Positions 262 to 20,935 of a stretch of DNA of 21,095 nucleotides are shown one piece after another. Location of the stretch: NCBI GenBank assembly GCA_964344235.1, contig CAYFMJ010000014.1, forward strand, positions 1 to 21,095, given 5' to 3'. The DNA is from an uncultured Methanosarcinales archaeon (GTDB lineage: Archaea; Nanobdellota; Nanobdellia; Woesearchaeales; GW2011-AR9). Within the stretch, counting starts at the first letter, position 1. The number at the start of each line of letters is the position of its first letter. Below the pieces are notes generated by a model. That model saw only the letters and a program-made list of their open reading frames with translations, did no database searches and was not told the DNA's origin. The position numbers were made by a program, and so were the translations under genes.

Positions 262-351
262 GTTCTATAGGCACAAGAATAGAAAACGTTATAATAGTAG
301 AAACTGTTTCTGAGACTAGTTTTAGGTGTAACAATAAGGAAGGTGACGATT

Positions 352-927
352 ATGGATGTTGATAAAATTCAAAAAGTAAATAATATGGCGCTTGAACTTC
401 TGAAGCAGGGATTAGCGCAAAGTCGAGAAGAAGCTGTAGAGCAAGCAGAGAAAATTTTTAGTGGCCAAGATTTAGGTGGATTTGAGCGGGTGCTTGGGCA
501 GGAGTCAGCGGGCAGTGAGGCTGTAAAGGAAGAAGCTGCAGAAGTGAGTGAGCCAGCACAAGAAGCCGAAAGTGTTGTATTAGACGCTGCAAAGATTGAA
601 GAAATTCTTTCGCAGAACTCTGCGTTCTTGGTTAAGAAAATTCAAGAATTTCAAAGTAAAATGACTGATTTACAGAATGAAGTAACGTTTCTCCGTAATT
701 CCATGAATAATAGGAGTTTAGTGAATACTTCCGTTGCTGAAGCGGCGGCAGTGGTAGCGGCAGAACCTGAGCCAGTACAGCAAGAGGAACCAAAAGCAGC
801 CGAGACAAGTGCAGAACCGCAACAGACTGCACTTGCAGAAGAAAAGAAACAGAGTCATCCGCGGTCAGGAAATTACAACGAAGATGATGTTTCAATTGAA
901 AAATTCTTCTACATGGGGAGTAAGTAG
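352..927 (+). CDS. Hypothetical protein with a coiled coil and an Ala/Glu/Pro-rich linker
   Basis: ORF 343-927. The SD-like GGAAGGTGA (338-346) favours the ATG at 352. It has a helical N-terminus, a central coiled coil (LVKKIQEFQSKMTDLQNEVTFL) and an ordered-looking C-terminal motif (HPRSGNYNEDDVSIEKFFYMG). Confidence 0.8.
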   Translation: MDVDKIQKVNNMALELLKQGLAQSREEAVEQAEKIFSGQDLGGFERVLGQESAGSEAVKEEAAEVSEPAQEAESVVLDAAKIEEILSQNSAFLVKKIQEFQSKMTDLQNEVTFLRNSMNNRSLVNTSVAEAAAVVAAEPEPVQQEEPKAAETSAEPQQTALAEEKKQSHPRSGNYNEDDVSIEKFFYMGSK

Positions 928-932
928 ATAAC

Positions 933-963
933 TTCTACTTTTTTATTTCTGTTTTATTTTTTT
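933..963 (+). terminator. Oligo-T archaeal terminator
   Basis: Several T runs directly follow the stop codon at 927. Confidence 0.45.
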
Positions 964-983
964 CATTATGATTCTGCAATAAC

Positions 984-1035
984 ACTACTCTGGAACCTAA
1001 ATCAGAAAGGTTTATATAGAATAACTACTCTGGAA
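984..1035 (+). promoter_or_regulatory. Promoter of the surface-protein genes, with a TATA box flanked by a 12-bp direct repeat
   Basis: CAGAAAGG-TTTATATA (TATA 1011-1018) lies 24 nt before ATG 1043. ACTACTCTGGAA occurs at 984-995 and 1024-1035. Confidence 0.6.
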
Positions 1036-1042
1036 TGGAAAC

Positions 1043-2500
1043 ATGACTTACACAAAGTTTAGTAGCATCGTATTTGTGGTGTTTTTGATCTCGTTAATGA
1101 CAGCAACAGCTGCTGTAAATATTGTTGAAGATTCTGTTACAATTGACGTTGATTACCAGGATTTTAATGATGAAGATCTTGATACAATTGTACAAACGAC
1201 TAAAACATTCACTTTAGAGAATGATGCGACAGAAGAAGCTATAGTGACGATTTCTGTTACAGGTTTACCAGAAGATTATGGGACTGTTGAGAAAGAAGTA
1301 ACAGTGCCAGCGGCAACAGCAGATGCAGTAGGGACTGAAAGTGTAACATTTGAACTTGATGTACCGCACCAAGCAGATCCAGGCGAAGCTGACATTGGAA
1401 CAATCGTTGTTACGAATGCTGCAGGAACAGAGGAAGACACAGCATCACTTACACAGAACACATTAACAATGATTGAAATTACTAAGTTAGAGTTTAGTTA
1501 TACTGATGAAAAAGGAAAATCAACTGATGATGATTTTGATGGCGATGGAACAAGTTTTTCGTTCAGTGATGATGTAAAACCGTTTACTGAAATTGTAATT
1601 GAAATTGAAATTGAAAATTTATTTGATAATGATTACGATAAAGAGGGAGAATTAGATAGCGTTGTGGTTACGATTGACGCAAGTCCAAACGATATCTTCC
1701 CTTCAGGATTTGAGGAAGAGTATGATTTGCCAGACATCGAAGCTGGAAGCGAGGAGCAACTGACGGTCTCATTCATTATTGATGAGGACGCCGATCCTGA
1801 CGATTACACGTTTGAGATCACAGTGGAAGCAGATGACGGCGAGAGTATCACCTATGAATTAAATAAAGAAATCGATTTCAAGTTGGAGCAGGAAAAAGAT
1901 GACTTACGGATTATCAAAGCAGACGTTATTTCAACAGCTATTACTGCATGTGATGCAAGTTTTGCGCTTGATTTCGAAATGAAAAATTTTGGTTCGAAAG
2001 ATCAAGACTTTGGTGGTGTTGTTATCTACAATAAAGAGTTAGGTATTAATGAAAACATTGATAAAATTAAAGTTGAAGAACATGGGGATGACGACACATG
2101 GAGTCAGTTGTTTACGCTAAACTTAGATAATCCTGCAGTAAAGGAATACACATTAGATGTGCAGACTTTTGTTGATCAGGATGAGTTATCTGATGATATA
2201 TTACTGAAAGTGAACGTTGGGAAGTGTAACGGCGCAGTTGAGGAACCTGCAACAACTCCAGGCACACAGCAAGGTACGGAACAGACTGCAACTGTTGACG
2301 TTCCTGAAACAGCAGGGCAGGATACTACGACAACACAACAAACAGAAAGTGATGCAACTGTTGTAGGTTCAGGAGATGTTGTACAATCCATTGAAGAAGC
2401 ATACACTAGTTACGATATGCTTGTTGCAGTGTTCATCGTAGGGATTGTCTTAGTGGTTGCAATCATAATTTTACTAATTGCAGTACTATTAAAGAAGTAA
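1043..2500 (+). CDS. Acidic membrane-anchored surface protein (putative S-layer family, Ig/CARDB-like beta domains)
   Basis: It has an N-terminal signal peptide, D/E/T/V-rich beta-strand pattern, a T/Q-rich linker and a C-terminal TM helix plus KK. It resembles the C-terminal third of 2578-7824. Confidence 0.8.
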   Translation: MTYTKFSSIVFVVFLISLMTATAAVNIVEDSVTIDVDYQDFNDEDLDTIVQTTKTFTLENDATEEAIVTISVTGLPEDYGTVEKEVTVPAATADAVGTESVTFELDVPHQADPGEADIGTIVVTNAAGTEEDTASLTQNTLTMIEITKLEFSYTDEKGKSTDDDFDGDGTSFSFSDDVKPFTEIVIEIEIENLFDNDYDKEGELDSVVVTIDASPNDIFPSGFEEEYDLPDIEAGSEEQLTVSFIIDEDADPDDYTFEITVEADDGESITYELNKEIDFKLEQEKDDLRIIKADVISTAITACDASFALDFEMKNFGSKDQDFGGVVIYNKELGINENIDKIKVEEHGDDDTWSQLFTLNLDNPAVKEYTLDVQTFVDQDELSDDILLKVNVGKCNGAVEEPATTPGTQQGTEQTATVDVPETAGQDTTTTQQTESDATVVGSGDVVQSIEEAYTSYDMLVAVFIVGIVLVVAIIILLIAVLLKK

Positions 2501-2577: not shown

Positions 2578-5500
2578 ATGAGAAAAACACAAAAGGTTCT
2601 AATTATTTTATTTGCTGTTGTTGCATTACTTGTAACGGCACAAGCGGCACTAGGAGACGTTGTCATCAATGAGGTTATGCCAAATCCGGCTGCCGTTGAT
2701 GATGCAGTTGGGGAGTATATTGAATTGTTTAATACAGGAGATGTAGCTGTGAATATTGATGGATATACATTAGAAGATTTTGGTGGTAACCCCCATACGA
2801 TTGATAATGGTGGAGTGTTAAATGTTCCTGCCAAAGGTTACCTATTACTCTGTCGTGATGCAGACGTTGCAGTGAATGGTGTACTTGGTTGTGATTATGA
2901 ATATGGAAGTTTTGATCTGGTGAATACGGGCGACGTTATCTTTTTGCATGAAAGTGCTGGTGGAGCAATTGTTGACTTCGTAGATTATGATGAGACATTT
3001 CCATTCTCTGCGGGAGTTGCAATGGAGCTTATTGACCCATCACTCGATGGTGAGTTAGTGGAAAATTGGAGAGCTGCTACTGTTGCATATGGTTCAGGTG
3101 ATTTAGGAACGCCAGGACAAGAAAATAATGTTGCACCAAATCTAAATGTTGAGGATAGAGTAGTTGAGGAGGACAGTGGTTTTGCATACTTTAATTTGCA
3201 GGAAGCGGCAAGTGATGAAGAGACGAATGACGAAGAATTGTTATTTTTCTTAGAATCACAAACTGGATCTGAAGTGATTACTTGTGGTCTTGATGATGGT
3301 TCGCATATAGTGAATTGTAAAACCCAGGAAAACCAGTTTGGAGAGAATGTCGTTACAGTTTCTGTTGTTGATGAAAATGGGGCCGAAGCAGTTGATACAT
3401 TTACAATTACAGTTAATGCGGTGAACGATGCGCCCGAAGTGGGAGAAGATGTTCTTACTGTTGATGAGGATTCTGAAGTAAACTTTGTTGATGTATTAGA
3501 TAATGATAATGATGTAGAAGACGGAAAGCCAACCGTTGTTTCAGTGACAGAAGCGACGAATGGAGTTGTTGGACTAAATAATGGTCTTGTCACATACACA
3601 CCAAATGAGAATTTCTTTGGCAGTGATTTATTTGCGTATACTGTACAAGATACTGAAAGTGAGGAAGCAACTGCCTTTGTTGAAGTAACAGTGATTTCAG
3701 TTAATGACGTTCCTGTAGTTGATGTAATTGATGATGTAGAAGTTGTGGAAAGTACTACAGAAACTATAACAGTGACGGCAACTGACGTTGAAGGAAGCGA
3801 TTTAGAAATTGATACTGCTTTATCCACAATTGATGGAGAAGCGTTTGAAGATTTATCATGGGTTACAGTTGATGGGTTGGGGTTTAAAGTTACTCCTGAC
3901 ACGGCAGGTTCATTTGACGTAAGCGTGGTTGTAACAGATGTGATTGATAGCTCAGAGCCAGTGAATTTTGATCTGGAGGTTGTTCCAGCGTTACAAATTG
4001 TTGAAGTGACAATTGATGGAGAAGTTATCAATACTGCAAGCTCAGCAAAGATTGATGTTACTGCGGGTGATGAGGTAACAGTAGCGTTTACGTATACAAA
4101 TAATTTAGATGAAAGTTTGTTTGGAGATTTAATTAATTCATGGTTTGGTGATATAGAAACGTTAGTCGTTAGTAATCCGGGTGTTCTTGTTGAGAACGCA
4201 AATGGAGAGAATGAATTGTTAACGACACCTCACCATGAACCGAAGAACCCAACATTAAAGAGTGGGGAGACGGGAGAAGTTGAACTGACATTTACAGTGC
4301 CAAAAGATATCGGACAGGATTCATTGAATATGGCTGTTTCGGTTAAAGGAAAGATTCTTGGAATCGAAACATATCAAGATGCTGCATCATTTGCATTTAA
4401 TGTAGGGTTTAATGTCGTTGATGTATATGTTGATCCAGAGATGACGATTGAGGAAGATCTGTTGATTTGCGATAGAACTGCAACGGTCCATACTACAATG
4501 ACAAATATTGGAGCTACACCAGTACTGCCAACCATCATGGTATTTGACGAACCAGCAGAGATTGATGCAGACTCTGGAATTGTAACAAGTACAGGCAATT
4601 TACTTGCTGAGAAACTTGTTCAACCAGGTTTAGCACCAGGGGAAACTCTGGAGGCGCAAGTTAATGTTGATGGCGGCTCACTAGCTGTAGGCGAACACAC
4701 TCTTTACGTGTATGTTGAAAGCAATTACTTCTGGAGTGAAGAAGCTGGTCATTACTTTGGTGGAGAAGGCAGTGTTGTCGTAAATGTTGAGGATTGTTTG
4801 AACACTGAAGCGATTGAGGCAGACTTGATTGTTGACAAGAACGAAGAGAATGCATTGTCACTTAATTTACTAGAGGTTGATGTGAGCAACGAGTATGAAT
4901 ATGTTAACGAAGAAATTGCTGGGGCTGCCGCAGTTGAATTTTCAATTGTGGAAGATGGACAGTCAAATGAAGAATTGATTTCATGTTCAATCGAGGACGA
5001 ACAGACTTTAGTATGTGAAGCACCGAAGGAAGATAGTGTTGGTACTTCAGAGATCACGCTTGGTATTAGCGCAAGTGGTTCTAAAGAGACATTTGAAGAA
5101 AGTGTTACTGTTACTGTCGCAACAAGCTTAGGTTTAACAGATGTAACTGTTAACGGAGTCAGCGGAGATACGCTTCAAGAAGACGGTGTCGTGGTTAAAC
5201 CGTTAGGGACGGTTGAATTGAGTTTCATGTTGGAGAATTCTCTGGAAGAAACATTAATTCAGATTGAAGCGATAGCCGTTGACACTAATGCTTTAGGTGA
5301 TGGGTATGAATTTGAATTTGATGAAGAAGATACTGTTACAACAACGGCACTAGCAGCGGGAGAGAGTACGAGTACACAAACAATTAGTTTCGTTGTACCT
5401 GGAAATGTTCCAGAGGGCGAGTATGAGGTTGGTTTAATGACAACAGGAGTAACGTTAGATGACGAATTATTTGGTGATCTGGTTGAATTCCCACTCCATG

Positions 5501-7824
5501 TTGTTCCAGAACTATCTGAAATTATCTTAACTGCAGAATTTGACGATGCTGATAATACAGTCTCATGTGATGCAACTGGAAATTTGAAATTTACAATCAC
5601 AAACACAGGAAGTGTTGAAGAAGATGATGTTGTGTTGACGTTCTACGACAATGGAGAGCAAATTGACAAATTAGAAGAGATGACTGTTGCTGTTGGGCAA
5701 ACATGGCAGGGAGAGCATGAAGTGACACTTGAAGAAGATGGTGAGCACACATTAACAGTTACTCTTGAATATAACTTTGCTGGAGATGAGGCTGCAAGTA
5801 GTGCAACTCCTGCAACGGCTGTTGTAACGAAAGAAGCTTGTTTAGGCGATACGTTCTCTCCGAAAGAGACCGAGGTTTCATTACAGGATGGTGTGACTCA
5901 AGAATTCTCAATAGAGACAAACAGTGCTATCTCACCAACATTAATTGCGTGGACGGTTACTGATGAAACTGGTGCAGTTACAGGTGAGAGTGGAGCTGTC
6001 ATTGAGGAAGGTAGTGGAACGAAGTTTTCATTTAGTTCATTACACGCTGGAGAGTTCACAGTGAAAGTTGTTGTTAATGGCAATGAAGCTGAGAGTCGGG
6101 AGTGGACCGTTACAGTTGTTACAGTACCGGTAGATGCTGCTGACTTTGGATTTACAGGAGAAGTAGCAGACCCAGCGACGGTAAGTGGTTTAGAATTATC
6201 ACAAAATGATGCGACAATTGTATTTACTGAATCTGTTGATATTAGCGATGTTGATTCATTTGCAGACGTTGTGACGTTAAGTAAAGTAAGTGCTGACAAG
6301 CGAGTTGTGGCTGTTGATTCAACAACAGCACCTGGCTTAGATAGTCCAGCAACAGTTACATTAGAGAACTTCCCTGATGGGGATACATCAATTACTCGAT
6401 ATCCTGGCTTTGGCGATGTTGATACGTTAACTGGCGGTGTTGATTGTATTGCAAGTGGTGCCTGTGTTATTACAAGCCAAGCTGATTCAACATTAACGTT
6501 TACTGTTGATGGATTCTCAACATATGTTGTGCAGAATGAACAGGCAGCAGATATTGAGTTGTCAGTATCAGAAGTTGCTTTCAGCGATGTTCACTTTAGT
6601 GAAACAACAACAAGCGCGTTTACGGTGACGAATGTTGGAACAAGCGATACAATCACGGGTTTAACGTTTGATACCTCAAGTATTGGAAGCGAATATGCTG
6701 TAGTAATAACAGATGCACCAGTAAGTTTAGATTCACAGGAAAGCCAAACAGTAACAGTTCAGATTACCGTGCCTGAAGATGGAGCGAGTGGAAAACATAC
6801 AATTGGTAATGTTGTCGTTTCGTGGGATGGTGCAGCTGAGAGTGTAACTCTACCAGTAACCATTTCTCCGGAGAGTTTCTTGAGTATCTCTAAAGTTGAG
6901 ATCAATGGTAAAACCTCAGGCGACTTAAAGATCGATGAAGATACTGAGATTGAAGTTGAAATTACCAATGATTACAGTGAAGACATGGAAGATGTTGAAG
7001 TTACTGTTACAATCTTAGACGTTGATGGTGATGACTTAGATGAAGATGATGAGATTGGCGATCTTGATGAAGGAGACGACGACACAGTTACGTTGAAGTT
7101 TGATCTGCAGAATGAAGACATTGATGAAGAAAAGTATACTATTGAGATCAAAGTTGAAGGTACAGCAGATGACGACACGGAACACGAAACAATCATCACG
7201 AAAGAAGTTGACGTGGACATTGAAAGTCATGCATTGACATTAAAGCATGCCGGCCTTTCAGTAGGAACAGTACAATGCTCAGCGTTAACAACGGTCCAAG
7301 TAACGGCATTAAACATCGGTTCAAAAGATGAAAATGACGTGGCAATTAGGGTGCGAAACAGTGCTTTAGGATTGGATTCGCAGAAGACCGGCATTGACAT
7401 CGATAAGTTTTTCGACAATGATAACGATTACAAAACGTCGTTTACGGTTGCAGTGGATAAAGATGTTGCTCCAGGAACATACCCCATTACTGTTGAATTG
7501 TTTAGAGATGATGATAAGCTTGAAGACAGCGAAGTTGTGAACTTAGTGGTCCAGGATTGTTTCACCTCACAAAGTTCAGAACAAGCTCAGAGTCAATTAG
7601 GTAGTGGTTCAGAACTAGCAGCACAATTACAGGCGCAGTTGAATGCACAGTTACAAGGAACTGTACAACAAGGAGCAGTACCCGTAGGGAATAGCGCAGC
7701 GAGTGTTACATCATCGTTCCGACAGAGTAATACGTACTTGCTATTGTTAGGATCGTTGGCATTACTTGTGTTTATTGCATTAATCCTAGCGATTGCAGTT
7801 GCTGCAAAGAGAAAGCGACGGTAA
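2578..7824 (+). CDS. Giant acidic cell-surface protein (1748 aa): lamin-tail domain, cadherin/Ig-like repeats, S-layer/CARDB-like modules, C-terminal TM anchor
   Basis: Signal peptide; LTD motifs (VVINEVMPNP...EYIELFN); cadherin-like motifs (VNAVNDAP, VTYTPNENFFGSDLFAYTV, ISVNDVP); Q-rich linker; TM helix and KRKRR tail. SD GAGGGG upstream. Confidence 0.85.
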   Translation: MRKTQKVLIILFAVVALLVTAQAALGDVVINEVMPNPAAVDDAVGEYIELFNTGDVAVNIDGYTLEDFGGNPHTIDNGGVLNVPAKGYLLLCRDADVAVNGVLGCDYEYGSFDLVNTGDVIFLHESAGGAIVDFVDYDETFPFSAGVAMELIDPSLDGELVENWRAATVAYGSGDLGTPGQENNVAPNLNVEDRVVEEDSGFAYFNLQEAASDEETNDEELLFFLESQTGSEVITCGLDDGSHIVNCKTQENQFGENVVTVSVVDENGAEAVDTFTITVNAVNDAPEVGEDVLTVDEDSEVNFVDVLDNDNDVEDGKPTVVSVTEATNGVVGLNNGLVTYTPNENFFGSDLFAYTVQDTESEEATAFVEVTVISVNDVPVVDVIDDVEVVESTTETITVTATDVEGSDLEIDTALSTIDGEAFEDLSWVTVDGLGFKVTPDTAGSFDVSVVVTDVIDSSEPVNFDLEVVPALQIVEVTIDGEVINTASSAKIDVTAGDEVTVAFTYTNNLDESLFGDLINSWFGDIETLVVSNPGVLVENANGENELLTTPHHEPKNPTLKSGETGEVELTFTVPKDIGQDSLNMAVSVKGKILGIETYQDAASFAFNVGFNVVDVYVDPEMTIEEDLLICDRTATVHTTMTNIGATPVLPTIMVFDEPAEIDADSGIVTSTGNLLAEKLVQPGLAPGETLEAQVNVDGGSLAVGEHTLYVYVESNYFWSEEAGHYFGGEGSVVVNVEDCLNTEAIEADLIVDKNEENALSLNLLEVDVSNEYEYVNEEIAGAAAVEFSIVEDGQSNEELISCSIEDEQTLVCEAPKEDSVGTSEITLGISASGSKETFEESVTVTVATSLGLTDVTVNGVSGDTLQEDGVVVKPLGTVELSFMLENSLEETLIQIEAIAVDTNALGDGYEFEFDEEDTVTTTALAAGESTSTQTISFVVPGNVPEGEYEVGLMTTGVTLDDELFGDLVEFPLHVVPELSEIILTAEFDDADNTVSCDATGNLKFTITNTGSVEEDDVVLTFYDNGEQIDKLEEMTVAVGQTWQGEHEVTLEEDGEHTLTVTLEYNFAGDEAASSATPATAVVTKEACLGDTFSPKETEVSLQDGVTQEFSIETNSAISPTLIAWTVTDETGAVTGESGAVIEEGSGTKFSFSSLHAGEFTVKVVVNGNEAESREWTVTVVTVPVDAADFGFTGEVADPATVSGLELSQNDATIVFTESVDISDVDSFADVVTLSKVSADKRVVAVDSTTAPGLDSPATVTLENFPDGDTSITRYPGFGDVDTLTGGVDCIASGACVITSQADSTLTFTVDGFSTYVVQNEQAADIELSVSEVAFSDVHFSETTTSAFTVTNVGTSDTITGLTFDTSSIGSEYAVVITDAPVSLDSQESQTVTVQITVPEDGASGKHTIGNVVVSWDGAAESVTLPVTISPESFLSISKVEINGKTSGDLKIDEDTEIEVEITNDYSEDMEDVEVTVTILDVDGDDLDEDDEIGDLDEGDDDTVTLKFDLQNEDIDEEKYTIEIKVEGTADDDTEHETIITKEVDVDIESHALTLKHAGLSVGTVQCSALTTVQVTALNIGSKDENDVAIRVRNSALGLDSQKTGIDIDKFFDNDNDYKTSFTVAVDKDVAPGTYPITVELFRDDDKLEDSEVVNLVVQDCFTSQSSEQAQSQLGSGSELAAQLQAQLNAQLQGTVQQGAVPVGNSAASVTSSFRQSNTYLLLLGSLALLVFIALILAIAVAAKRKRR

Positions 7825-11133: not shown

Positions 11134-13098
11134 TTAGTGTTTTCTTTTAATCAAATAACTGCCAACAATGATCAAAGCGATGAGTGCTGCAAGCAGCGCA
11201 GGAACATGCCACCCCTCTAACCGATAATCGGCAGCCGCTGGTTCCGGTTTGGTTAATTCTTTAGGAGGAATTTCTGCCGCGGGTTGTGTTTCCGCTTCTC
11301 CTTTAGTTGTTTCGGGAACAATGGGCCGTTCTTTTTCTCCAATTATAAAATAGCTGAAGCCAGGAGTTTCTGTCTGGAGGTAAAGGTAGTCTAGGTCTTC
11401 AGCAGTAATCGTTGTAGGAAGTTCTACCCATTCTGTTGTGTGTCTAAACATAGCAACGTCATCTTTATCCAAGTTGTTTTCAGTTAACCATGATTGCTCA
11501 ACTTTGGAACGAATGTGGATAGAACCAAAGTCGTCGATCTTAAAATTCTTCGGCGTGAACTCTAAAATACGGAAGGTAAACCGATCAAAAGAAGTCGTTT
11601 CTCCCAGGGGAATGGAATCAAGACGTTCAATTTTTAACTGGGGACCCTTAACGTCTCTCGTCACAGTAAAGATGATTTCTTCAAAGCCGACGTTATCGTT
11701 ACCATTAACAGTGACTTTCTCATCTTTGTAAATCAGGGACCAAATCATATTAAGACTGTTAGCAACTTTGACACCAACACCAGAACTGCCACCAGCACCA
11801 GGACTCGAATCACTGCTGGAAGAACTGGAAGAAGAACTGGATTCCGTAGTATCGTTAGATTCTAAGGTGTAATTACTAAAACTGCTGATGTTCGCATATA
11901 AAATGCCGTTTACATCATCATACGTTACGTTACAGAGATCTAAACCGTCTGCACACGCAACCCCATCTTTAAGGAGCCGAGGAGTAGTAGCAAAAGAGAG
12001 ATCATAAAACTCAAGTTCCGCGGTGTTGTTGAGATTAATACTATCTTTCGAGGTTCGTAAGCCAGCCTTATGTTCTTCTAAAAAGACAGTTACTCCAAGC
12101 TCTAAACTCATATTAGTCGTAACGTTAATTTGAGACCAGTTGATTTTACTGTAGCCATTACTGTAAATGATATCATTAGTGAAAGCAGCACCAGTGTCAT
12201 CATAGAATGATGCATTAACAGAGCTGATGGTCGTGTTGACAAATGAATTGTTGTCAGGTGTGCCGCTAAACCCTAGGGAAAGAAGTTTAATCCCATAGGC
12301 TGTATCATTGGTTGTTGTAATATTTGTATTAATGAAAGTATTGTTAACCGTGTTATTCCAATCACAGAGGGTACAGCTACCGCCGCTAGAGATGGAGATT
12401 AGTGCTGAACTGGAAGAATTTGCAGCATTTGTCATATTGTTGTTTATGATAGTGGAGTTGCCTAGACCTCCCGTAGATTGGATTCCAAAGTTTGTTTCAT
12501 TATCACCTAGACTGATGAATAAACTATCAGCAACGGTGATGTTTTCTTTGGTACTGCTCCCAAGATCGATGAGTTTTGAATCTGGAAGGTTGGAGTAGAA
12601 CGCGCATGAACTTATGTTTGTGTGGCTTGCTTCTGTTTCGTGAGAGAATCCAGTAGGCGCGTTATTTGCAGTCTCAGAATCGTTAAAGGTCATATTGTAA
12701 AGCGTTAGGTGAGATACGTTTTTCGTTCGAATACCGGCGTTCGTGTAGTTGAGAATGGTGAGGTTGAAGATAGTGATGTTCTCTACAGCTGCCGATTCAT
12801 TTCCAATAACGAAACCATCCGTTTTACCATCTGAAGCCCCTGTTCCATTAACGATAATAGTTGTACCATTGCCATCAATACTAACATTAGATGTCATGAT
12901 TGTGATGCAACCTGCAACAGAGAGATTAGTGAAACTTTGGTTAATAACATATTCACCGGGAGTTTCGATGTCATTGTTCTTCCCAGCTGTACGACAATCA
13001 TCAATGATCGTTGCGGCATAAGACGTTGCAGTAAGCGTGAAGAGAATTGTGCAGACGAGAAATAATAGTCCCACAGTACTTCTAACACCCCTTTTCAT
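11134..13098 (-). CDS. PGF-pre-PGF domain surface glycoprotein with a parallel beta-helix-like N-terminal region
   Basis: Signal peptide, N/T/S-rich beta-helix-like repeats with 33 N-x-S/T sequons by my count, poly-Ser/Gly linker, a domain ending ETPGFSYFIIG, then a TM helix and basic tail. Confidence 0.85.
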   Translation of the reverse strand: MKRGVRSTVGLLFLVCTILFTLTATSYAATIIDDCRTAGKNNDIETPGEYVINQSFTNLSVAGCITIMTSNVSIDGNGTTIIVNGTGASDGKTDGFVIGNESAAVENITIFNLTILNYTNAGIRTKNVSHLTLYNMTFNDSETANNAPTGFSHETEASHTNISSCAFYSNLPDSKLIDLGSSTKENITVADSLFISLGDNETNFGIQSTGGLGNSTIINNNMTNAANSSSSALISISSGGSCTLCDWNNTVNNTFINTNITTTNDTAYGIKLLSLGFSGTPDNNSFVNTTISSVNASFYDDTGAAFTNDIIYSNGYSKINWSQINVTTNMSLELGVTVFLEEHKAGLRTSKDSINLNNTAELEFYDLSFATTPRLLKDGVACADGLDLCNVTYDDVNGILYANISSFSNYTLESNDTTESSSSSSSSSSDSSPGAGGSSGVGVKVANSLNMIWSLIYKDEKVTVNGNDNVGFEEIIFTVTRDVKGPQLKIERLDSIPLGETTSFDRFTFRILEFTPKNFKIDDFGSIHIRSKVEQSWLTENNLDKDDVAMFRHTTEWVELPTTITAEDLDYLYLQTETPGFSYFIIGEKERPIVPETTKGEAETQPAAEIPPKELTKPEPAAADYRLEGWHVPALLAALIALIIVGSYLIKRKH

Positions 13099-13133: not shown

Positions 13134-15926
13134 TTAGCGGTTTGTTCTTGTTGGTCGTCTGTACTCTCGCTGAAGTCTTGTTTTAGAAGTGTCGGTGATT
13201 TTCTCTTGCATGGAATTAATTTTTTCATTATTCCAAACAAGTGTTCTATCTCGCGTAGGTCTTTGTAGATGGACATTACGTTTTGTTAGTACAATGTCGT
13301 CGATGATAAAGAATGACGTGGCGAATGTATTGGTGCCGGTTTCTTTAATGGAAACTTTAATGTTTTCTGTTCCTTTAGGAACTTTACTTAGAGGGATAGT
13401 GGCTGTTTTCCAATCTTTGGTGTAGGAAACTTCAACTGCGTTGTCTGAAAGAATGTTGTTGTTTTTATCTAGGAGGCTTAAGGTGAAAATCCCTTTGACA
13501 TCTGGGTGGTTCATTTTATATTTTGCTTGCAGACCATAACGCATGATACCGTTGTTTGCTAACTTCGATTCACACAGTAAAGAAACCGTTTGCTTCATTT
13601 CACCTCCCGGATGTAAGCCGAATCCATGATTGCCATTAGTCCCCGCAGTGATTGCGACATCACCAGAGGTTTCCCATTGTTGTAAATATTGTAATGCTTT
13701 GCCATTTCTGACTTGCGATTCTATTTTAATGTTAAAGTCTTTGTCTTGTTGCAGGGTTTCGTAATGAGTAGGGGTTTCAACGCCATTGATGGTAACTCTC
13801 AAATTCTCTTCTGGTGTTGTCGTAATTGCAATAGGTAAACCGGTGAAATACACTCCGCTAAATTCAGTGTCCTGCATCTGTAACGTGTTTACGAGCACGT
13901 TTCCACCACACGTGGGAGTTGTGATAGTAACGTCAGCAGTGCCGGTTGGTTCTTCGAAGTATTCAATAATGTGGGTTCTGAGGTAATCAGGTCGCTGTTC
14001 GGCGAATCCACGTATTACGTTGATTCTTTTCTTCCAGATATTTAGGTAGGATTCCTCATCTGAAGAGGGATACGTGGCCCAACGGTTAAAATGTTGGAAT
14101 ATTTCTGGTTCAAGTCTGTTTTCAAAAACATCAATCTGGGGTGTTACTATGTCTGTATGGAAATGAGTGTTGAGCAAGTCCGCAAAGCGAATGATGAACT
14201 GTTCTTGAAGAGCAGAGTTACGTAAGACGTCGCCAATTGGTACGGGCGAAGGGTACAGTTCTTGCACAGTTAAAAATTCTGCAAAGTTGTTTTCCATAGC
14301 AGGGGTTTTGAATAGTTCTATGGAGGGATTACCAGAATGCTTGCCCATACTCATGTCTGTATCGTGGAGCATCCATCGCCAAACACCGCCTTCTTTGGGT
14401 TTCCAATAGCGAACATTTGGCCAGTCGTCGTTGGAGATATAGATCTGTGTGGCGTAATAGTCAAACATGTTACTAATGTCATATTTTGTGGCAATGAAAT
14501 CGATAAACTCGGAAGTCTCAAAACCATTATCTTGACCGAATTGCCATATTGCGAAGTGGTCGTCTTGGAATTTTAGGTAGTTTTGATAATCCTCTTCAGA
14601 TGCTAAACCCCAATCGTACTCTGAACCAGTTTTACCATCAACAACCATGACCTCTTCAGGGTCAAGATCGTAATGGTCTGCTAGGAAATATTTGTCATGT
14701 CGCTCTCGTAAATAATAGATGCCCCAATATTCTCCATTAATGAACACAATCACAGGAGATGAGGCTTGTGTGTCCATGTCTAAATCGTCTACAAGAGAAT
14801 GAATAAAAGGGTCGCGCATGTGAACGCTTCTGGCCGATTGAGGGACACCGTCCTGCCCAGCGTTTCGCACGATAATTCGCTTATAGCTTTCAAGAGAATC
14901 TTCACCAAACAGAGGATATTCGATTCGGTCCTGACCATACTTCTCTTTGGCATAAATACGAAACGGAGATTGGAAAAGTTCAGGATATCCTGGGTTGTGA
15001 CTATGCCGTTTTCCATCGACGGTCATGGCGAAGGCAAGTTCTTTCTCTTGGTTGTAATACTCCATCTCCAGCGTATGAAATTGTTTATTAGCTTTCGAAG
15101 AAAATTCAGCCAAAAGACCTGTTTCTTTCGTGTATAAGTCAATTGGGTCTGCAATAAACGTGACGACAGGCAGAGTGTAGTCTTCATCAATAAGAAATGT
15201 TTTGGAAATTACTTCACTCTGTGCATCCCCAGATACTGTCATTGCTCTGATGGCGGTTGTATCTTCTATTTCGATAGGTTCGGTGTAAAGATTTTGTTCA
15301 CTCACTGTTGGGAGGGAGCCATCTGTGGTGTAGAAGATTGTGTTATCGTCACCCGTTGTTAGTTCTAGAGTTATTGACTCATCATGGAAACCAGCGTCAT
15401 GGTTGAACGTTGGTGGTTCGATGATTTCAGTAAAGACATTTGCTTCTCCAGGAGTCGGTTCAATAAGGAGATTCCAGTGGTTTGTGCCATCGGGGATTCT
15501 ACCAAAAGAAATGTCTGGTTGTTGTGGGCCGAATTCTATGTTGTCTATTAACGTTGTGCCATCAGTGTCATACAATGTGATCAGTTCGCCGTTACTGCTC
15601 AGTTTAAAGTTAGTGTGTAATGGGCCGTCTTCTTCGTTGTCATCAGCTATGAATATGAGAAAAGATTCTGCGGGGATGATGACGTTATTAGGGATTTCAT
15701 ATTTTGTGGGGTTGTTTGCTTTATCGGAAAGGTACATCCCTGACAAGTCCATTGGTTGGTCCTCTGCGTTGTATAATTCAAACCAGTCTGGTGTTTTATC
15801 ATCAATTTCAAAATCGTCGTTTACTGCGAGAAGTTCATTGATGTATATTTCAGGAGCTGCGAGAGCAAGAGTTGAGGATAAAACGAGAATGAGTCCGAAT
15901 ATTACTGCCCACAGAGTGGATTTCAT
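13134..15926 (-). CDS. Secreted CotH-family protein kinase with a lamin-tail domain, an Fn3-associated/chitobiase-like domain and a C-terminal carbohydrate-binding-like domain
   Basis: Signal peptide; LTD (IYINELLA..DWFELYN..DLSGMYLSD); IFYTTDGSLP; CotH motifs (VFINGEYWGIY.LRER, NDDWP, WRWMLHDTD); a C-terminal beta-sandwich ending IDDIVL. Confidence 0.85.
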   Translation of the reverse strand: MKSTLWAVIFGLILVLSSTLALAAPEIYINELLAVNDDFEIDDKTPDWFELYNAEDQPMDLSGMYLSDKANNPTKYEIPNNVIIPAESFLIFIADDNEEDGPLHTNFKLSSNGELITLYDTDGTTLIDNIEFGPQQPDISFGRIPDGTNHWNLLIEPTPGEANVFTEIIEPPTFNHDAGFHDESITLELTTGDDNTIFYTTDGSLPTVSEQNLYTEPIEIEDTTAIRAMTVSGDAQSEVISKTFLIDEDYTLPVVTFIADPIDLYTKETGLLAEFSSKANKQFHTLEMEYYNQEKELAFAMTVDGKRHSHNPGYPELFQSPFRIYAKEKYGQDRIEYPLFGEDSLESYKRIIVRNAGQDGVPQSARSVHMRDPFIHSLVDDLDMDTQASSPVIVFINGEYWGIYYLRERHDKYFLADHYDLDPEEVMVVDGKTGSEYDWGLASEEDYQNYLKFQDDHFAIWQFGQDNGFETSEFIDFIATKYDISNMFDYYATQIYISNDDWPNVRYWKPKEGGVWRWMLHDTDMSMGKHSGNPSIELFKTPAMENNFAEFLTVQELYPSPVPIGDVLRNSALQEQFIIRFADLLNTHFHTDIVTPQIDVFENRLEPEIFQHFNRWATYPSSDEESYLNIWKKRINVIRGFAEQRPDYLRTHIIEYFEEPTGTADVTITTPTCGGNVLVNTLQMQDTEFSGVYFTGLPIAITTTPEENLRVTINGVETPTHYETLQQDKDFNIKIESQVRNGKALQYLQQWETSGDVAITAGTNGNHGFGLHPGGEMKQTVSLLCESKLANNGIMRYGLQAKYKMNHPDVKGIFTLSLLDKNNNILSDNAVEVSYTKDWKTATIPLSKVPKGTENIKVSIKETGTNTFATSFFIIDDIVLTKRNVHLQRPTRDRTLVWNNEKINSMQEKITDTSKTRLQREYRRPTRTNR

Positions 15927-17448: not shown

Positions 17449-17513
17449 CTCCATAAGTCTTTTAAATACTGGCATTAAATTCGGTCCTATAATAGATAGA
17501 TGTTTCTTTGACC

Positions 17514-19565
17514 ATGGCAGAACCGAAATCCACCAAAAATATTCGTATTTCGAAGCAGATTGTTGAACAGGTAATTGGCCAAGATGAGGCTGTGAAAGTT
17601 ATCAAGAAAGCAGCTCAGCAACGCAGACACGTTCTATTAATCGGAGAACCAGGAACAGGGAAATCGATGTTGGGGTTAGCCCTAGCAGAGTTATTGCCAA
17701 AATCAAGTTTGAAAGATATTTTATCCATCCAAAATGTGAATGATGAGAATAATCCGTTAGTCAAAGTCATCCCCGCGGGGAAAGGAAGAGAGGAAGTCAG
17801 TAAATTAGCTCTTGACTCTAAGCAGCTAATGAAAAATAATAATTTCTTGTTGTTTTTAGTAGCGATCTTCACGTTAATCGCACCATGGTGGGTGAGATCA
17901 CATTACAAATCAGATTTAATGTTCACAGCATTCTTCTTAGGAGGTATGTTATTCTTAGCTGCGTTTGCAATTATGATGAGTATGGGTCCTAGAATGTTTA
18001 AAGGACAGAAAGGAGCAGTACCACCAAAAACGATTGTGGATAATTTTGGTAAGAAACAAGCGCCGTTTTTTGACGCAACGGGTGCACATGCAGGTGCGTT
18101 ATTAGGGGATGTGCTTCACGATCCGTTTCAGACGTTTTTAGGGGAACTAGAGCTTAGTAAAATTAAACAGAATAGAATCCTCCCAGTGAAGCTTAGGGAA
18201 GAATTAGATAGATATTTTGATAAAGAAAAACACAAAATAGTAAAAAGCATTGAGAGAGATAACTACGAAGCTATCTTCTTACCAAAGAATAACCTGTCGG
18301 TACTTGGTGAAATCAACGGTTCTGTCTCTCCAGTTGAAGTTTTATCATCCAACCGGTATGATTATGACGGTGAAATGATAAAAATCACCACTTCCGAAAA
18401 CAAAGAACTTGTGATTACACCAGAGCATAGAATCGGTGTTTGGAAGAACGGAAAAGTGGCGTATATTGAAGCACGGGAGATACAACAAGGAGATGAGGTT
18501 GTAGCTAAGTCCGAGAATATTATCATCGATGAGCTAGATATTATCAACACATACGATGCACGACAACGGGAACAATGCAGACTTTACTATAGATATCAAG
18601 AAATTAAAGCGGAACAACCAACATGGGGTTACAAAAAGATCGCTAAGGCAATGGGCCAACCGATTGGGAAAACACGATGGTGGCATACTGGAAAACACGT
18701 TCCAGTTCCAATACAAACTATAAGGTGGCTAAAAGAACGTGGGCTTCTGCCGCTTACGATAGACAACCCAAAGCTCCCACTTATCGCAAAAGTGCTTGGA
18801 TCCAGTTTTGGAGATGGTGGAATATTTGAAAATCTCAATGCAATATTCCTTTCGAGTTCGGAACTAAGAGCAACGGAAGAATTTGGAGAGGACTTAGTGA
18901 GAATATTCGGTGAAGAAGTTGAAGAAAACACGAGGACAATCGAAGCGGGAATTGAAGGGCATTCTTGGTGCTATCAAAACACCAATAGAAAAGTGATTAG
19001 ATTTTTTGTTGCTTTAGGAGCTCCACAAGGAAAAAAGACAGTACAGGAACTCACATTTCCTACATGGGTAAAGCTTAAAGATTATATTGAGAAAGAATTC
19101 TACGGTTCTTTCATTGGTAGCGAGTTAGGAACACCAATTATTCATAAACATGGTAACTATCTAACAAGTTTGGAGGTAGGGACCTCAAGTGCCCCGCAAT
19201 TAAAAGAGAATAGGTTGGAGACACTGAGAAATCTCGAAGATTACCTACAAAGGAATAGGGTCAGTACCACATCAATTTATCAAGGGAAATCAAATACGGA
19301 AGGGAACCTTGTTTATAGATTGCTTATTGAAAAGAAAATGGATAATGTTATTTTATTCTTAATGAATATCAAAATAAATTATTGCGTCTATAAAGTTGAA
19401 AGGTTATACAAAGCGTTAGGACAATGGGCTGATCTCAAGAAAAAGAAGTACTTTGAGTTACTGGAAAGAGGGTACGGCTCCGAGAGAGCGATGAAAGTGT
19501 TAAACTTAACACCAAATGCCCTTTACTTATTATTAAATCATTTTGGATCAGAGGTTAAAACATGA
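17514..19565 (+). CDS. lonB: LonB protease N-terminal part (AAA+ Walker A, TM hairpin) fused to the N-terminal intein fragment with a LAGLIDADG endonuclease
   Basis: [18 protein letters not shown], two TM helices and [13 protein letters not shown], then an intein. The ORF track starts at TTG 17508; ATG 17514 is the likely start. Confidence 0.9.
18132..19562 (+). mobile_element. Intein N-fragment (IntN, 477 aa) with a LAGLIDADG homing endonuclease
   Basis: It starts after HDPFQ with TFLGE. Block B is LVITPEHRI, followed by [11 protein letters not shown]. Endonuclease motifs are [11 protein letters not shown] and [12 protein letters not shown]. No block F/G occurs before the TGA. Confidence 0.88.
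19551..19555 (+). promoter_or_regulatory. SD-like site for the IntC-LonC ORF
   Basis: GAGGT lies 6 nt before ATG 19562, which overlaps the upstream TGA (ATGA). Confidence 0.55.
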
Positions 19566-19678
19566 AACTCACGAAACAGACTATCACAAAAGTGGAACGA
19601 ATTCCGTACAACGGCAAATTGTACAATATTACAACTAGCTCGGGAAATGTTATAGTCAACGGGGTTCTATGTAAAAAT
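19562..19678 (+). mobile_element. Intein C-fragment (IntC), blocks F/G
   Basis: [18 protein letters not shown] followed by Ser+1. Removing IntN and IntC restores the conserved Lon junction HDPFQ|SGGLGTP. Confidence 0.9.
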
Positions 19679-20935
19679 TCAGGAGGATTAGGAACACCAG
19701 CACACCAGAGAGTCGTTGCAGGGATGATTCACAAAGCACACTTAGGCGTATTGTTTATCGATGAGATTGCTACACTCCATCCACGAACGCAGCAGGAATT
19801 ATTGTCGGCATTACAAGAACGAAAATTCCCAATTACCGGACAGTCCGAGAGAAGTGCAGGAGCGATGGTACGAACGGAAGCAGTGCCATGTGATTTTGTG
19901 TTAGTAGCTGCGGGGAATTTAGACACGATTAAGAACATGCATCCAGCATTACGAAGCAGAATTAGAGGGTATGGATATGAAATTTATATGAATGAAACGA
20001 TGCCCGATACAAAGGAGAATAGAATGAAAATTGCTCGCTTTGTAGCACAGGAAGTGGAAAAAGAAAAAGGAAAAATTCCACATTTCGATTTATCAGGGAT
20101 TAACGGGATTATTGAAGAAGCCCGTAGACGGGCTAACAGAAAAGGACATTTAACATTGCATCTTAGAGGGTTAGGTGGTTTAGTACGAGCGGCGGGTGAT
20201 TTAGCACGAGAAGGGAAAGCAGAATTTGTGACAAAACAACATGTGAAGGAAGCGAAAACAGTTGCTCGGCCTCTTGAACAGCAAATTGCAGATAAATATA
20301 TTGAGCGGAAGAAGGAGTATGAAGTGATTATGACGTCTGGCAAGCAAGTTGGAAGAGTGAATGGTTTAGCGGTGATTGGTTCAGGCAGTGCGCATTCAGG
20401 AATTTTATTACCAATTGAAGCGGAAGTAACGATTGGTGGGAAAAAGTCAGAGTTTATTGCAACCGGAAAATTAGGAGAGATTGCAAAGGAAGCGATCAAG
20501 AACGTTTCCGCTATTGTATTAAAGTATTTCGGAGAAGACTTGAAGGAAAAGTATGATGTGTATGTACAATTCTTACAAACGTATGAAGGAGTTGAAGGGG
20601 ATTCCGCTTCCATTGCTGTAGCCACTGCGATTATTTCGGCGTTCAAAGGTATTCCTGTGAAGCAGGAGATAGCGATGACGGGTTCATTGTCAGTGAGAGG
20701 AGAAGTCTTACCAGTTGGAGGCGTTTCATCTAAAGTTGAGGCGGCGATTGATACTGGGGTGAAGACAGTTATTGTACCGAAATCCAATATGCAGGATATT
20801 ATTTTAGATAAAGAAAAGATGGCGAAGGTAAAGATTATTCCTGTAACGAAGATTGAGGAAGTTCTAGAGTATGCGTTAGACTGGAATGGGCAGAAGAAAG
20901 TCAAAGACAAGATTCTGAATGGGAAGAAAAAATAA
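19562..20935 (+). CDS. lonB: Intein C-fragment (39 aa) fused to the LonB C-terminal part (Walker B, sensor, Ser-Lys protease domain)
   Basis: [39 protein letters not shown]|SGGLGTP, then [20 protein letters not shown] (catalytic Ser) and GGVSSK (catalytic Lys). Confidence 0.9.

Follow-up and report, generated by a model that had tools for sequence, protein, structure and literature searches.

Split inteins are usually regarded as evolutionary dead ends which are fixed in one lineage. They are defined as split mini-inteins, and those of cyanobacterial DnaE form the largest known group (PMC4760082). In N. equitans PolB and cyanobacterial DnaE (Ssp and Npu) the break lies just before block F and gives a Met-initiated C-intein of 35-40 aa; no endonuclease is present, the halves are unlinked, and the host enzyme, which is encoded in two genes, is rejoined by trans-splicing. 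The fractured genes gp41-1, NrdJ-1 and IMPDH-1 have both splicing halves in one locus and orientation, where they flank an endonuclease; their endonucleases are free-standing GIY-YIG or Vsr-like genes, their hosts are DNA-metabolism enzymes of phage-like contigs, and a later loss of the endonuclease is foreseen in the proposed model (PMC2677866, where neither LAGLIDADG nor Lon is mentioned). For LonB itself, 10 contiguous inteins were reported from Euryarchaeota (PMC4760082). Here we report the lonB locus of a Woesearchaeota-type (DPANN) archaeon, which lies in a stretch of 21,095 nucleotides (contig CAYFMJ010000014.1; this whole stretch is called the window), and in which the protease LonB is divided by an intein that is itself split into two genes.

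The LonB intein is broken at the same point as the PolB and DnaE inteins, with a Met-initiated C-intein (IntC) of similar length. Like the N. equitans Pol intein, it has no cysteine at the catalytic positions, which are Thr1 and Ser+1. It differs from these inteins in its LonB host, in its adjacent and overlapping halves, in its Thr1 and in a 477-aa N-intein (IntN) with a LAGLIDADG domain. From the fractured genes it differs in that this domain is made in one polypeptide with the rest of IntN, and in its host, an archaeal protease. A literature search, whose coverage left out subscription journals, returned no description of a split Lon intein. We consider it highly likely that the intein at HDPFQ/SGG (the stroke marks the splice point) is genuine and naturally split, has an endonuclease-bearing N-half and yields two products which are joined by trans-splicing.

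The window belongs to a draft genome (G000) of 1.19 Mb in 37 contigs which is 96% complete and holds LonB in a single copy. LonB was found in 40 of 41 relatives, and because of this presence and the single copy in a nearly complete genome a working LonB product is expected. The two open reading frames (ORFs) together give Walker A, membrane segments, Walker B, lid and S16 protease in the order of an archaeal LonB. Pfam AAA-type matches cover residues 14-88 of the N-extein, and the C-extein was matched by Lon_C (E 3e-33) and LonB_AAA-LID (E 3e-7). The N-extein shares 72-83% identity with the LonB of family relatives that lack the intein, and the joined exteins have 624 aa against 620-650 aa for LonB in relatives. 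The closest relative is only 73% identical. Since the intein-less LonB of the same family reads through the insertion site unbroken, the insertion lies exactly between Q and S. The ORF1 junction reads HDPFQ/TFLGELEL and the ORF2 junction VLCKN/SGGLGTPAH. IntN carries a poorly conserved insert of about 45 aa after the first strand and ends ORF1 with HFGSEVKT, of which the tail SEVKT is variable. The 683-aa form of ORF1 is database cluster P0001, and the window translation has an in-frame TTG at 17508 upstream of its ATG. The frame of ORF2 is closed upstream by a TAA at 19556-58, beside a run of four A (A4) at 19557-60. A preliminary description of this DNA, made from its letters, had given the coordinates of the split gene, the lengths of the exteins and intein halves, the ATGA overlap, the GAGGT sequence, the TAA and the A4 run, and all were confirmed base for base.

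That description had proposed a natural split of the intein dividing LonB, and the relatives bear it out. The intein is present in 24 of the 401 genomes of the same order (19 of the 282 of high quality) and every one of the 24 has the break at the same residue; one of them, G339 (locus L018), enters the order-wide counts and one identity-comparison row only and was left out of every alignment, tree and model, and none of the conclusions rests on it. The frame with IntN spans 680-737 aa in 22 genomes and 358-360 aa in two. IntC, which is 39 aa long except in one genome with 37, opens with M, then K, N or T, then L or F. A search of a protein collection gave 211 matching clusters; the best 120 of them are nearly all 675-745 aa long and end in LNHF or LN with a variable tail of 3-10 aa, and a contiguous form of about 1140 aa, a length within the searched range, was not among these best 120. 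In more than 100 clusters, drawn from Woesearchaeota/Nanoarchaeota assemblies, ORF1 stops at the same point. Contiguous inteins in all close relatives would have spoken against the split, by the preliminary description's own account, and the opposite was found, none of the members of this intein family met here being contiguous. The LonB intein is therefore naturally split, and its separate genes are conserved among relatives. Unlinked halves were considered for G139, G044 and G328 and were rejected, as a direct search placed ORF2 adjacent to ORF1 in all three; in G270 and G274 the two halves are on separate contigs because contig ends intervene.

The residues needed for splicing are those of a class 1 intein, with a nucleophile at residue 1, a TxxH in block B and a C-terminal Asn followed by Ser+1. 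Across 112 clusters residue 1 is Cys in 45, Thr in 43 (as in the window) and Ser in 24, with no other residue, while the T and H of block B are kept in at least 98%. IntC positions E12, Y16, G18, K19, Y21, N22, T24, T25, S27, G28, N29, L36 and N39 are invariant in 17 genomes, as is Ser+1 after N39. The first acyl shift appears to be still under selection, because the limitation of residue 1 to three nucleophilic side chains is otherwise hard to explain. The Thr1 clade (G000, G213, G139, G349, G299, G037 and G238) keeps Thr1 throughout at 61-68% identity to G000. The only solved chain matched by a sequence search of the PDB was the Mja KlbA intein (2jmz; E 4.6e-8, IntN residues 20-142), which, unlike the split Thr1 intein of LonB, is a contiguous class 2 mini-intein starting with Ala. 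By these residues the LonB split intein looks functional, and trans-splicing of the LonB halves may be inferred.

The C-terminal 337 aa of IntN gave no Pfam match, and the assignment of this domain rests for that reason on a structure model and a fold search. The AlphaFold model, built with a 21-row alignment, has a predicted local distance difference test score (pLDDT) of 89 and a predicted template-modelling score of 0.86, and Foldseek placed it with probability 1.00 beside the TliVMA intein endonuclease, I-Tsp061I, I-DmoI and PI-SceI. The acids ending the two motifs are D228 (FGDGG), kept in at least 90% of members, and E331 (GSELG), kept in 100%. The domain is thus confidently modelled as a LAGLIDADG homing endonuclease with the two-motif alpha-beta-beta-alpha-beta-beta-alpha fold. 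As it maps to the end of IntN, the break falls where the endonuclease insertion ends on its C-terminal side. Classical split inteins are broken at this position too, with the difference that here the endonuclease stays attached to IntN. No ORF lies between the halves in the window, where the fractured genes have a free-standing endonuclease gene (Dassa 2009).

The docking of the halves was modelled with IntN in alignment A3 and IntC plus 21 extein residues in alignment A2. The interface score ipSAE was 0.64 (median of three runs) against 0.00 for the best control, with a partner pLDDT of 69 or more and 82% or more of contacts common to the runs. Of 80 solved complexes 58 attain the score mark applied, as do 2 of 110 mismatched pairs. 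Contacts with the N-half are made throughout IntC 1-40 and fall on the N-splice junction (residues 206-215) and on the core of the Hedgehog/intein, HINT, fold (residues 263-339), and the prediction is that IntN and IntC assemble into one HINT fold.

ORF1 and ORF2 would share a transcript, and the ATGA overlap would couple their translation. ORF1 would give the N-part of Lon, with Walker A and the membrane anchor, fused to the endonuclease-bearing IntN, and ORF2 would give the 39-aa IntC fused to the C-part with Walker B, lid and protease. IntC would dock into the HINT half of IntN, after which the class 1 steps may be expected to proceed as an N-O acyl shift at Thr1, an attack by Ser+1 and the cyclisation of Asn39, so releasing the 624-aa LonB with the junction HDPFQSGGLGTP. 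LonB is very probably rejoined after translation in this way.

Several points weigh against trans-splicing. Step 1 is given for Cys1 or Ser1, and Thr occurs only in a figure legend (PMC4031507), which makes the Thr1 of the window non-canonical. IntC has Asn22 at the block-F position that we read as F:4, where Asp is usual, and Lys or Ser in place of the penultimate His (G:6). The penultimate His and the block-F Asp are assisting residues and are not strictly required. The Pfam family Intein_splicing scores 31.2 bits (E 2e-7 to 4.5e-7) against a gathering cut-off of 35.8; the C-terminal intein blocks are encoded in the other gene than the N-half which was scored. The complex model can pass through resemblance, because solved split inteins exist, and its pass shows in part likeness and not binding of these particular halves. 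No spliced product has been seen at the protein level.

These unusual residues and the missing product would also suit a pair of halves which no longer splice, and which either bridge the Lon fragments non-covalently or belong to a decaying gene. We regard this as unlikely. A merely associating pair fits poorly with a first residue confined to C, S or T and with the conserved TxxH, terminal Asn and Ser+1; the Thr1 clade has diverged to the identities given above with both genes intact, and both exteins are as conserved as the intein-less LonB. It is also improbable that an insert of 516 aa between Walker A and Walker B would be tolerated by an AAA+ hexamer.

The geometry of the junction bears on how the two genes are read. 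The same-site split with conserved ATGA and GAGGT had been put forward in the preliminary description as a check among relatives, and the result was divided. The split site recurs, and the ATGA overlap is the commonest arrangement (11 of 19 other script-scored junctions, and G139), but junctions with an 11-nt overlap, an in-frame stop or spaced genes also occur in the order, and the GAGGT sequence is not kept, other purine-rich stretches standing there instead. The spaced genomes have gaps of 14, 34, 224, 225, 325, 330 and 439 nt. In G159 a TTG stands in place of the ATG, which we read as the start codon of IntC. The two halves of G044 (L032, junction at 2893-2901 of the reverse strand) are in one frame, with a stop and one Lys codon before the ATG; here a read-through of the stop would yield a contiguous intein. 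The 325-nt spacer of G384 (L034 2968-3292) holds an open frame which is rich in C-x-x-C pairs and resembles part of a small zinc-binding protein. Both ORFs, with the ATGA overlap between them, recur in G037 from another family of the order, and the DNA of that genome aligns without gaps through the junction; it has five A (A5) where the window has A4, and the frame relation is unchanged.

Programmed -1 frameshifting or stop-start reinitiation, either of which would make a contiguous cis-splicing precursor, could draw on the ATGA overlap and the A-rich run ahead of the stop, and a single-tRNA slip at the AAA of 19557-59 is conceivable. We consider it very improbable. The junction has no X-XXY-YYZ heptamer, as had already been remarked in the preliminary description, and the -1-frame TAA at 19556-58 leaves room for two codons. 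In relatives no slippery sequence is conserved before the ATGA (cagcATGa, catcATGa and ccgcATGa), and in all cases IntC opens with a start codon, 39 aa ahead of the splice site. Many relatives space the genes, and because their halves are up to 439 nt apart frameshifting cannot apply to them. Least probable of all, and already refuted for the family, is a sequencing or assembly error in this 37-contig draft, by which an A would be missing from the A4 run and the true gene would be a contiguous intein: one added A does fuse the frames, as the preliminary description had cautioned, but that caveat falls away, since G037 keeps the split with A5, several genomes lack an A-run ahead of the ATG, carry an in-frame stop or space the two genes by 14-439 nt, the 24 genomes and the more than 100 clusters end ORF1 at the same residue in independent assemblies, and the residues following LNHFG differ in number and kind, as those of a true C-terminus do.

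The order holds a contiguous form, a split form with the endonuclease and a split form without it. The contiguous form is found in G035 (L045 171-3398, minus strand) as a LonB frame of 1075 aa with a cis intein at HDPFQ/SGG; it shares the host protein with the contiguous euryarchaeal inteins, and with the split intein the site as well. It has the canonical Cys1 and THN/S, blocks F and G are clearly homologous and the endonuclease region is different. In G310 (L038) and G372 (L039) IntN lacks the endonuclease, has 137-146 aa and begins with Cys1, and a gene for a 39-aa IntC follows 330-439 nt downstream. The spacer of G310 still contains non-coding sequence left over from the endonuclease tail (57% identity over 42 aa, E 1e-12), and from this it follows that the endonuclease was deleted from an already split form; both genomes match the loss foreseen in the fractured-gene model (PMC2677866). 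Another variation was seen in two Woesearchaeota LonB N-halves (P0058 and P0065), where an extra cis intein lies in the Walker A loop (ending FVHN/SMMG) and the same split is retained, so that these LonB proteins have two inteins each, one cis and one split.

The distribution of the split intein does not follow that of its host protein. Most family relatives of the window genome have an intein-less LonB, and within the family the intein is carried by G000 and G270 only. The exteins of G270 are 78% and 81% identical to those of G000 and are the closest to them, whereas its IntN is only 52% identical and among the most distant; the IntN of G213, G139 and G349, from other families, are 65-66% identical to that of G000. 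The extein tree joins G000 with G270 (node value 100), G213 with G274 (99) and G299 with G403 (98), matching the family codes, and all three pairs are separated in the IntN tree, where G000 stands in a clade (99) without G270, G274 groups with G279 and G319 (96) and G403 with G337 (99). On the intein, the grouping of G000 with G270 was rejected by the approximately unbiased (AU) test (p = 0.005). Because the intein tree is at odds with both the extein tree and the taxonomy, the cassette of IntN, endonuclease, break and IntC has probably moved between lineages by homing when it was already split. Against this movement it counts that both trees are quick trees in which G270 sits on a long branch, and that the discordance could come from old intein lineages sorted among hosts and not from recent homing.

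Since both halves and the endonuclease are together in one cassette at the insertion site, the element could home as a unit even now, and the phylogeny suggests past homing while split. At the start of the C-extein, G000 reads GTPAH (19679-19720, compared with L006-L015) and most intein-bearing alleles read GTPAHERV, while the intein-less family relatives, together with G270 and G139, read GTPANQRV. Speculatively, this difference may be a short co-conversion tract left by homing.

The LonB intein is a naturally split, endonuclease-bearing Thr1 intein which is probably still mobile. The textbook split inteins are endonuclease-free mini-inteins (PMC4760082), and this one keeps a homing endonuclease on one half, sits in a protease and not in a replication enzyme, and is spread patchily across many DPANN lineages. 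If homing while split is true, a selfish element would spread gene fission horizontally. Very few cysteine-independent split inteins are said to function at moderate temperature, and such inteins are in demand (PMC10189870, in which a search for Thr1 matched only Thr106). Judged from its sequences, the present family supplies dozens of natural Thr1 or Ser1 variants with Ser+1 as candidates for such inteins. The wider proposal is that a large split-intein family stays mobile, as the endonuclease on the N-half lets homing copy the break and spread a pre-split gene between archaeal lineages, and that the roughly 40% of members with Thr1, the window included, are natural cysteine-independent split inteins; for this proposal as a whole we see the chances as even. 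The coordinates of the locus are collected in Table 1.

Table 1. Features of the split lonB locus in the window (positions in the window).
Feature	Position	Strand	Details
ORF1, N-part of LonB with N-intein	17514..19565	+	683 aa from ATG 17514; stop TGA 19563-65
N-extein	17514..18131	+	206 aa; Walker A GEPGTGKS; two hydrophobic membrane segments; C-terminal end HDPFQ
N-intein, HINT splicing part	18132..18551	+	Intein residues 1-140; Thr1 at 18132-34; block B T96-P-E-H99 at 18417-18428
LAGLIDADG homing-endonuclease domain (modelled)	18552..19562	+	Intein residues 141-477; in-frame fusion at the end of IntN; motif acids D228 and E331
GAGGT, Shine-Dalgarno-like	19551..19555	+	6 nt 5' of the ORF2 start
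ATGA start/stop overlap of ORF1 and ORF2	19562..19565	+	ORF2 in the -1 frame
C-intein	19562..19678	+	39 aa, blocks F and G; begins MKLTKQ, ends VLCKN; terminal C-K-N39
C-extein	19679..20935	+	418 aa; starts at Ser+1 with SGGLGTPAH; Walker B GVLFIDE, LonB lid, Lon_C protease domain; stop 20933-35

Elsewhere in the window, three ORFs of 194, 485 and 654 aa at 343-2500 (plus strand) and 11134-13098 (minus strand) gave no Pfam match at E 1e-5. Two large surface proteins are predicted in the window, one of 1748 aa at 2578-7824 on the plus strand with a lamin-tail domain and Big_9/cadherin-like repeats, and one of 930 aa at 13134-15926 on the minus strand with a lamin-tail domain and a CotH kinase domain.

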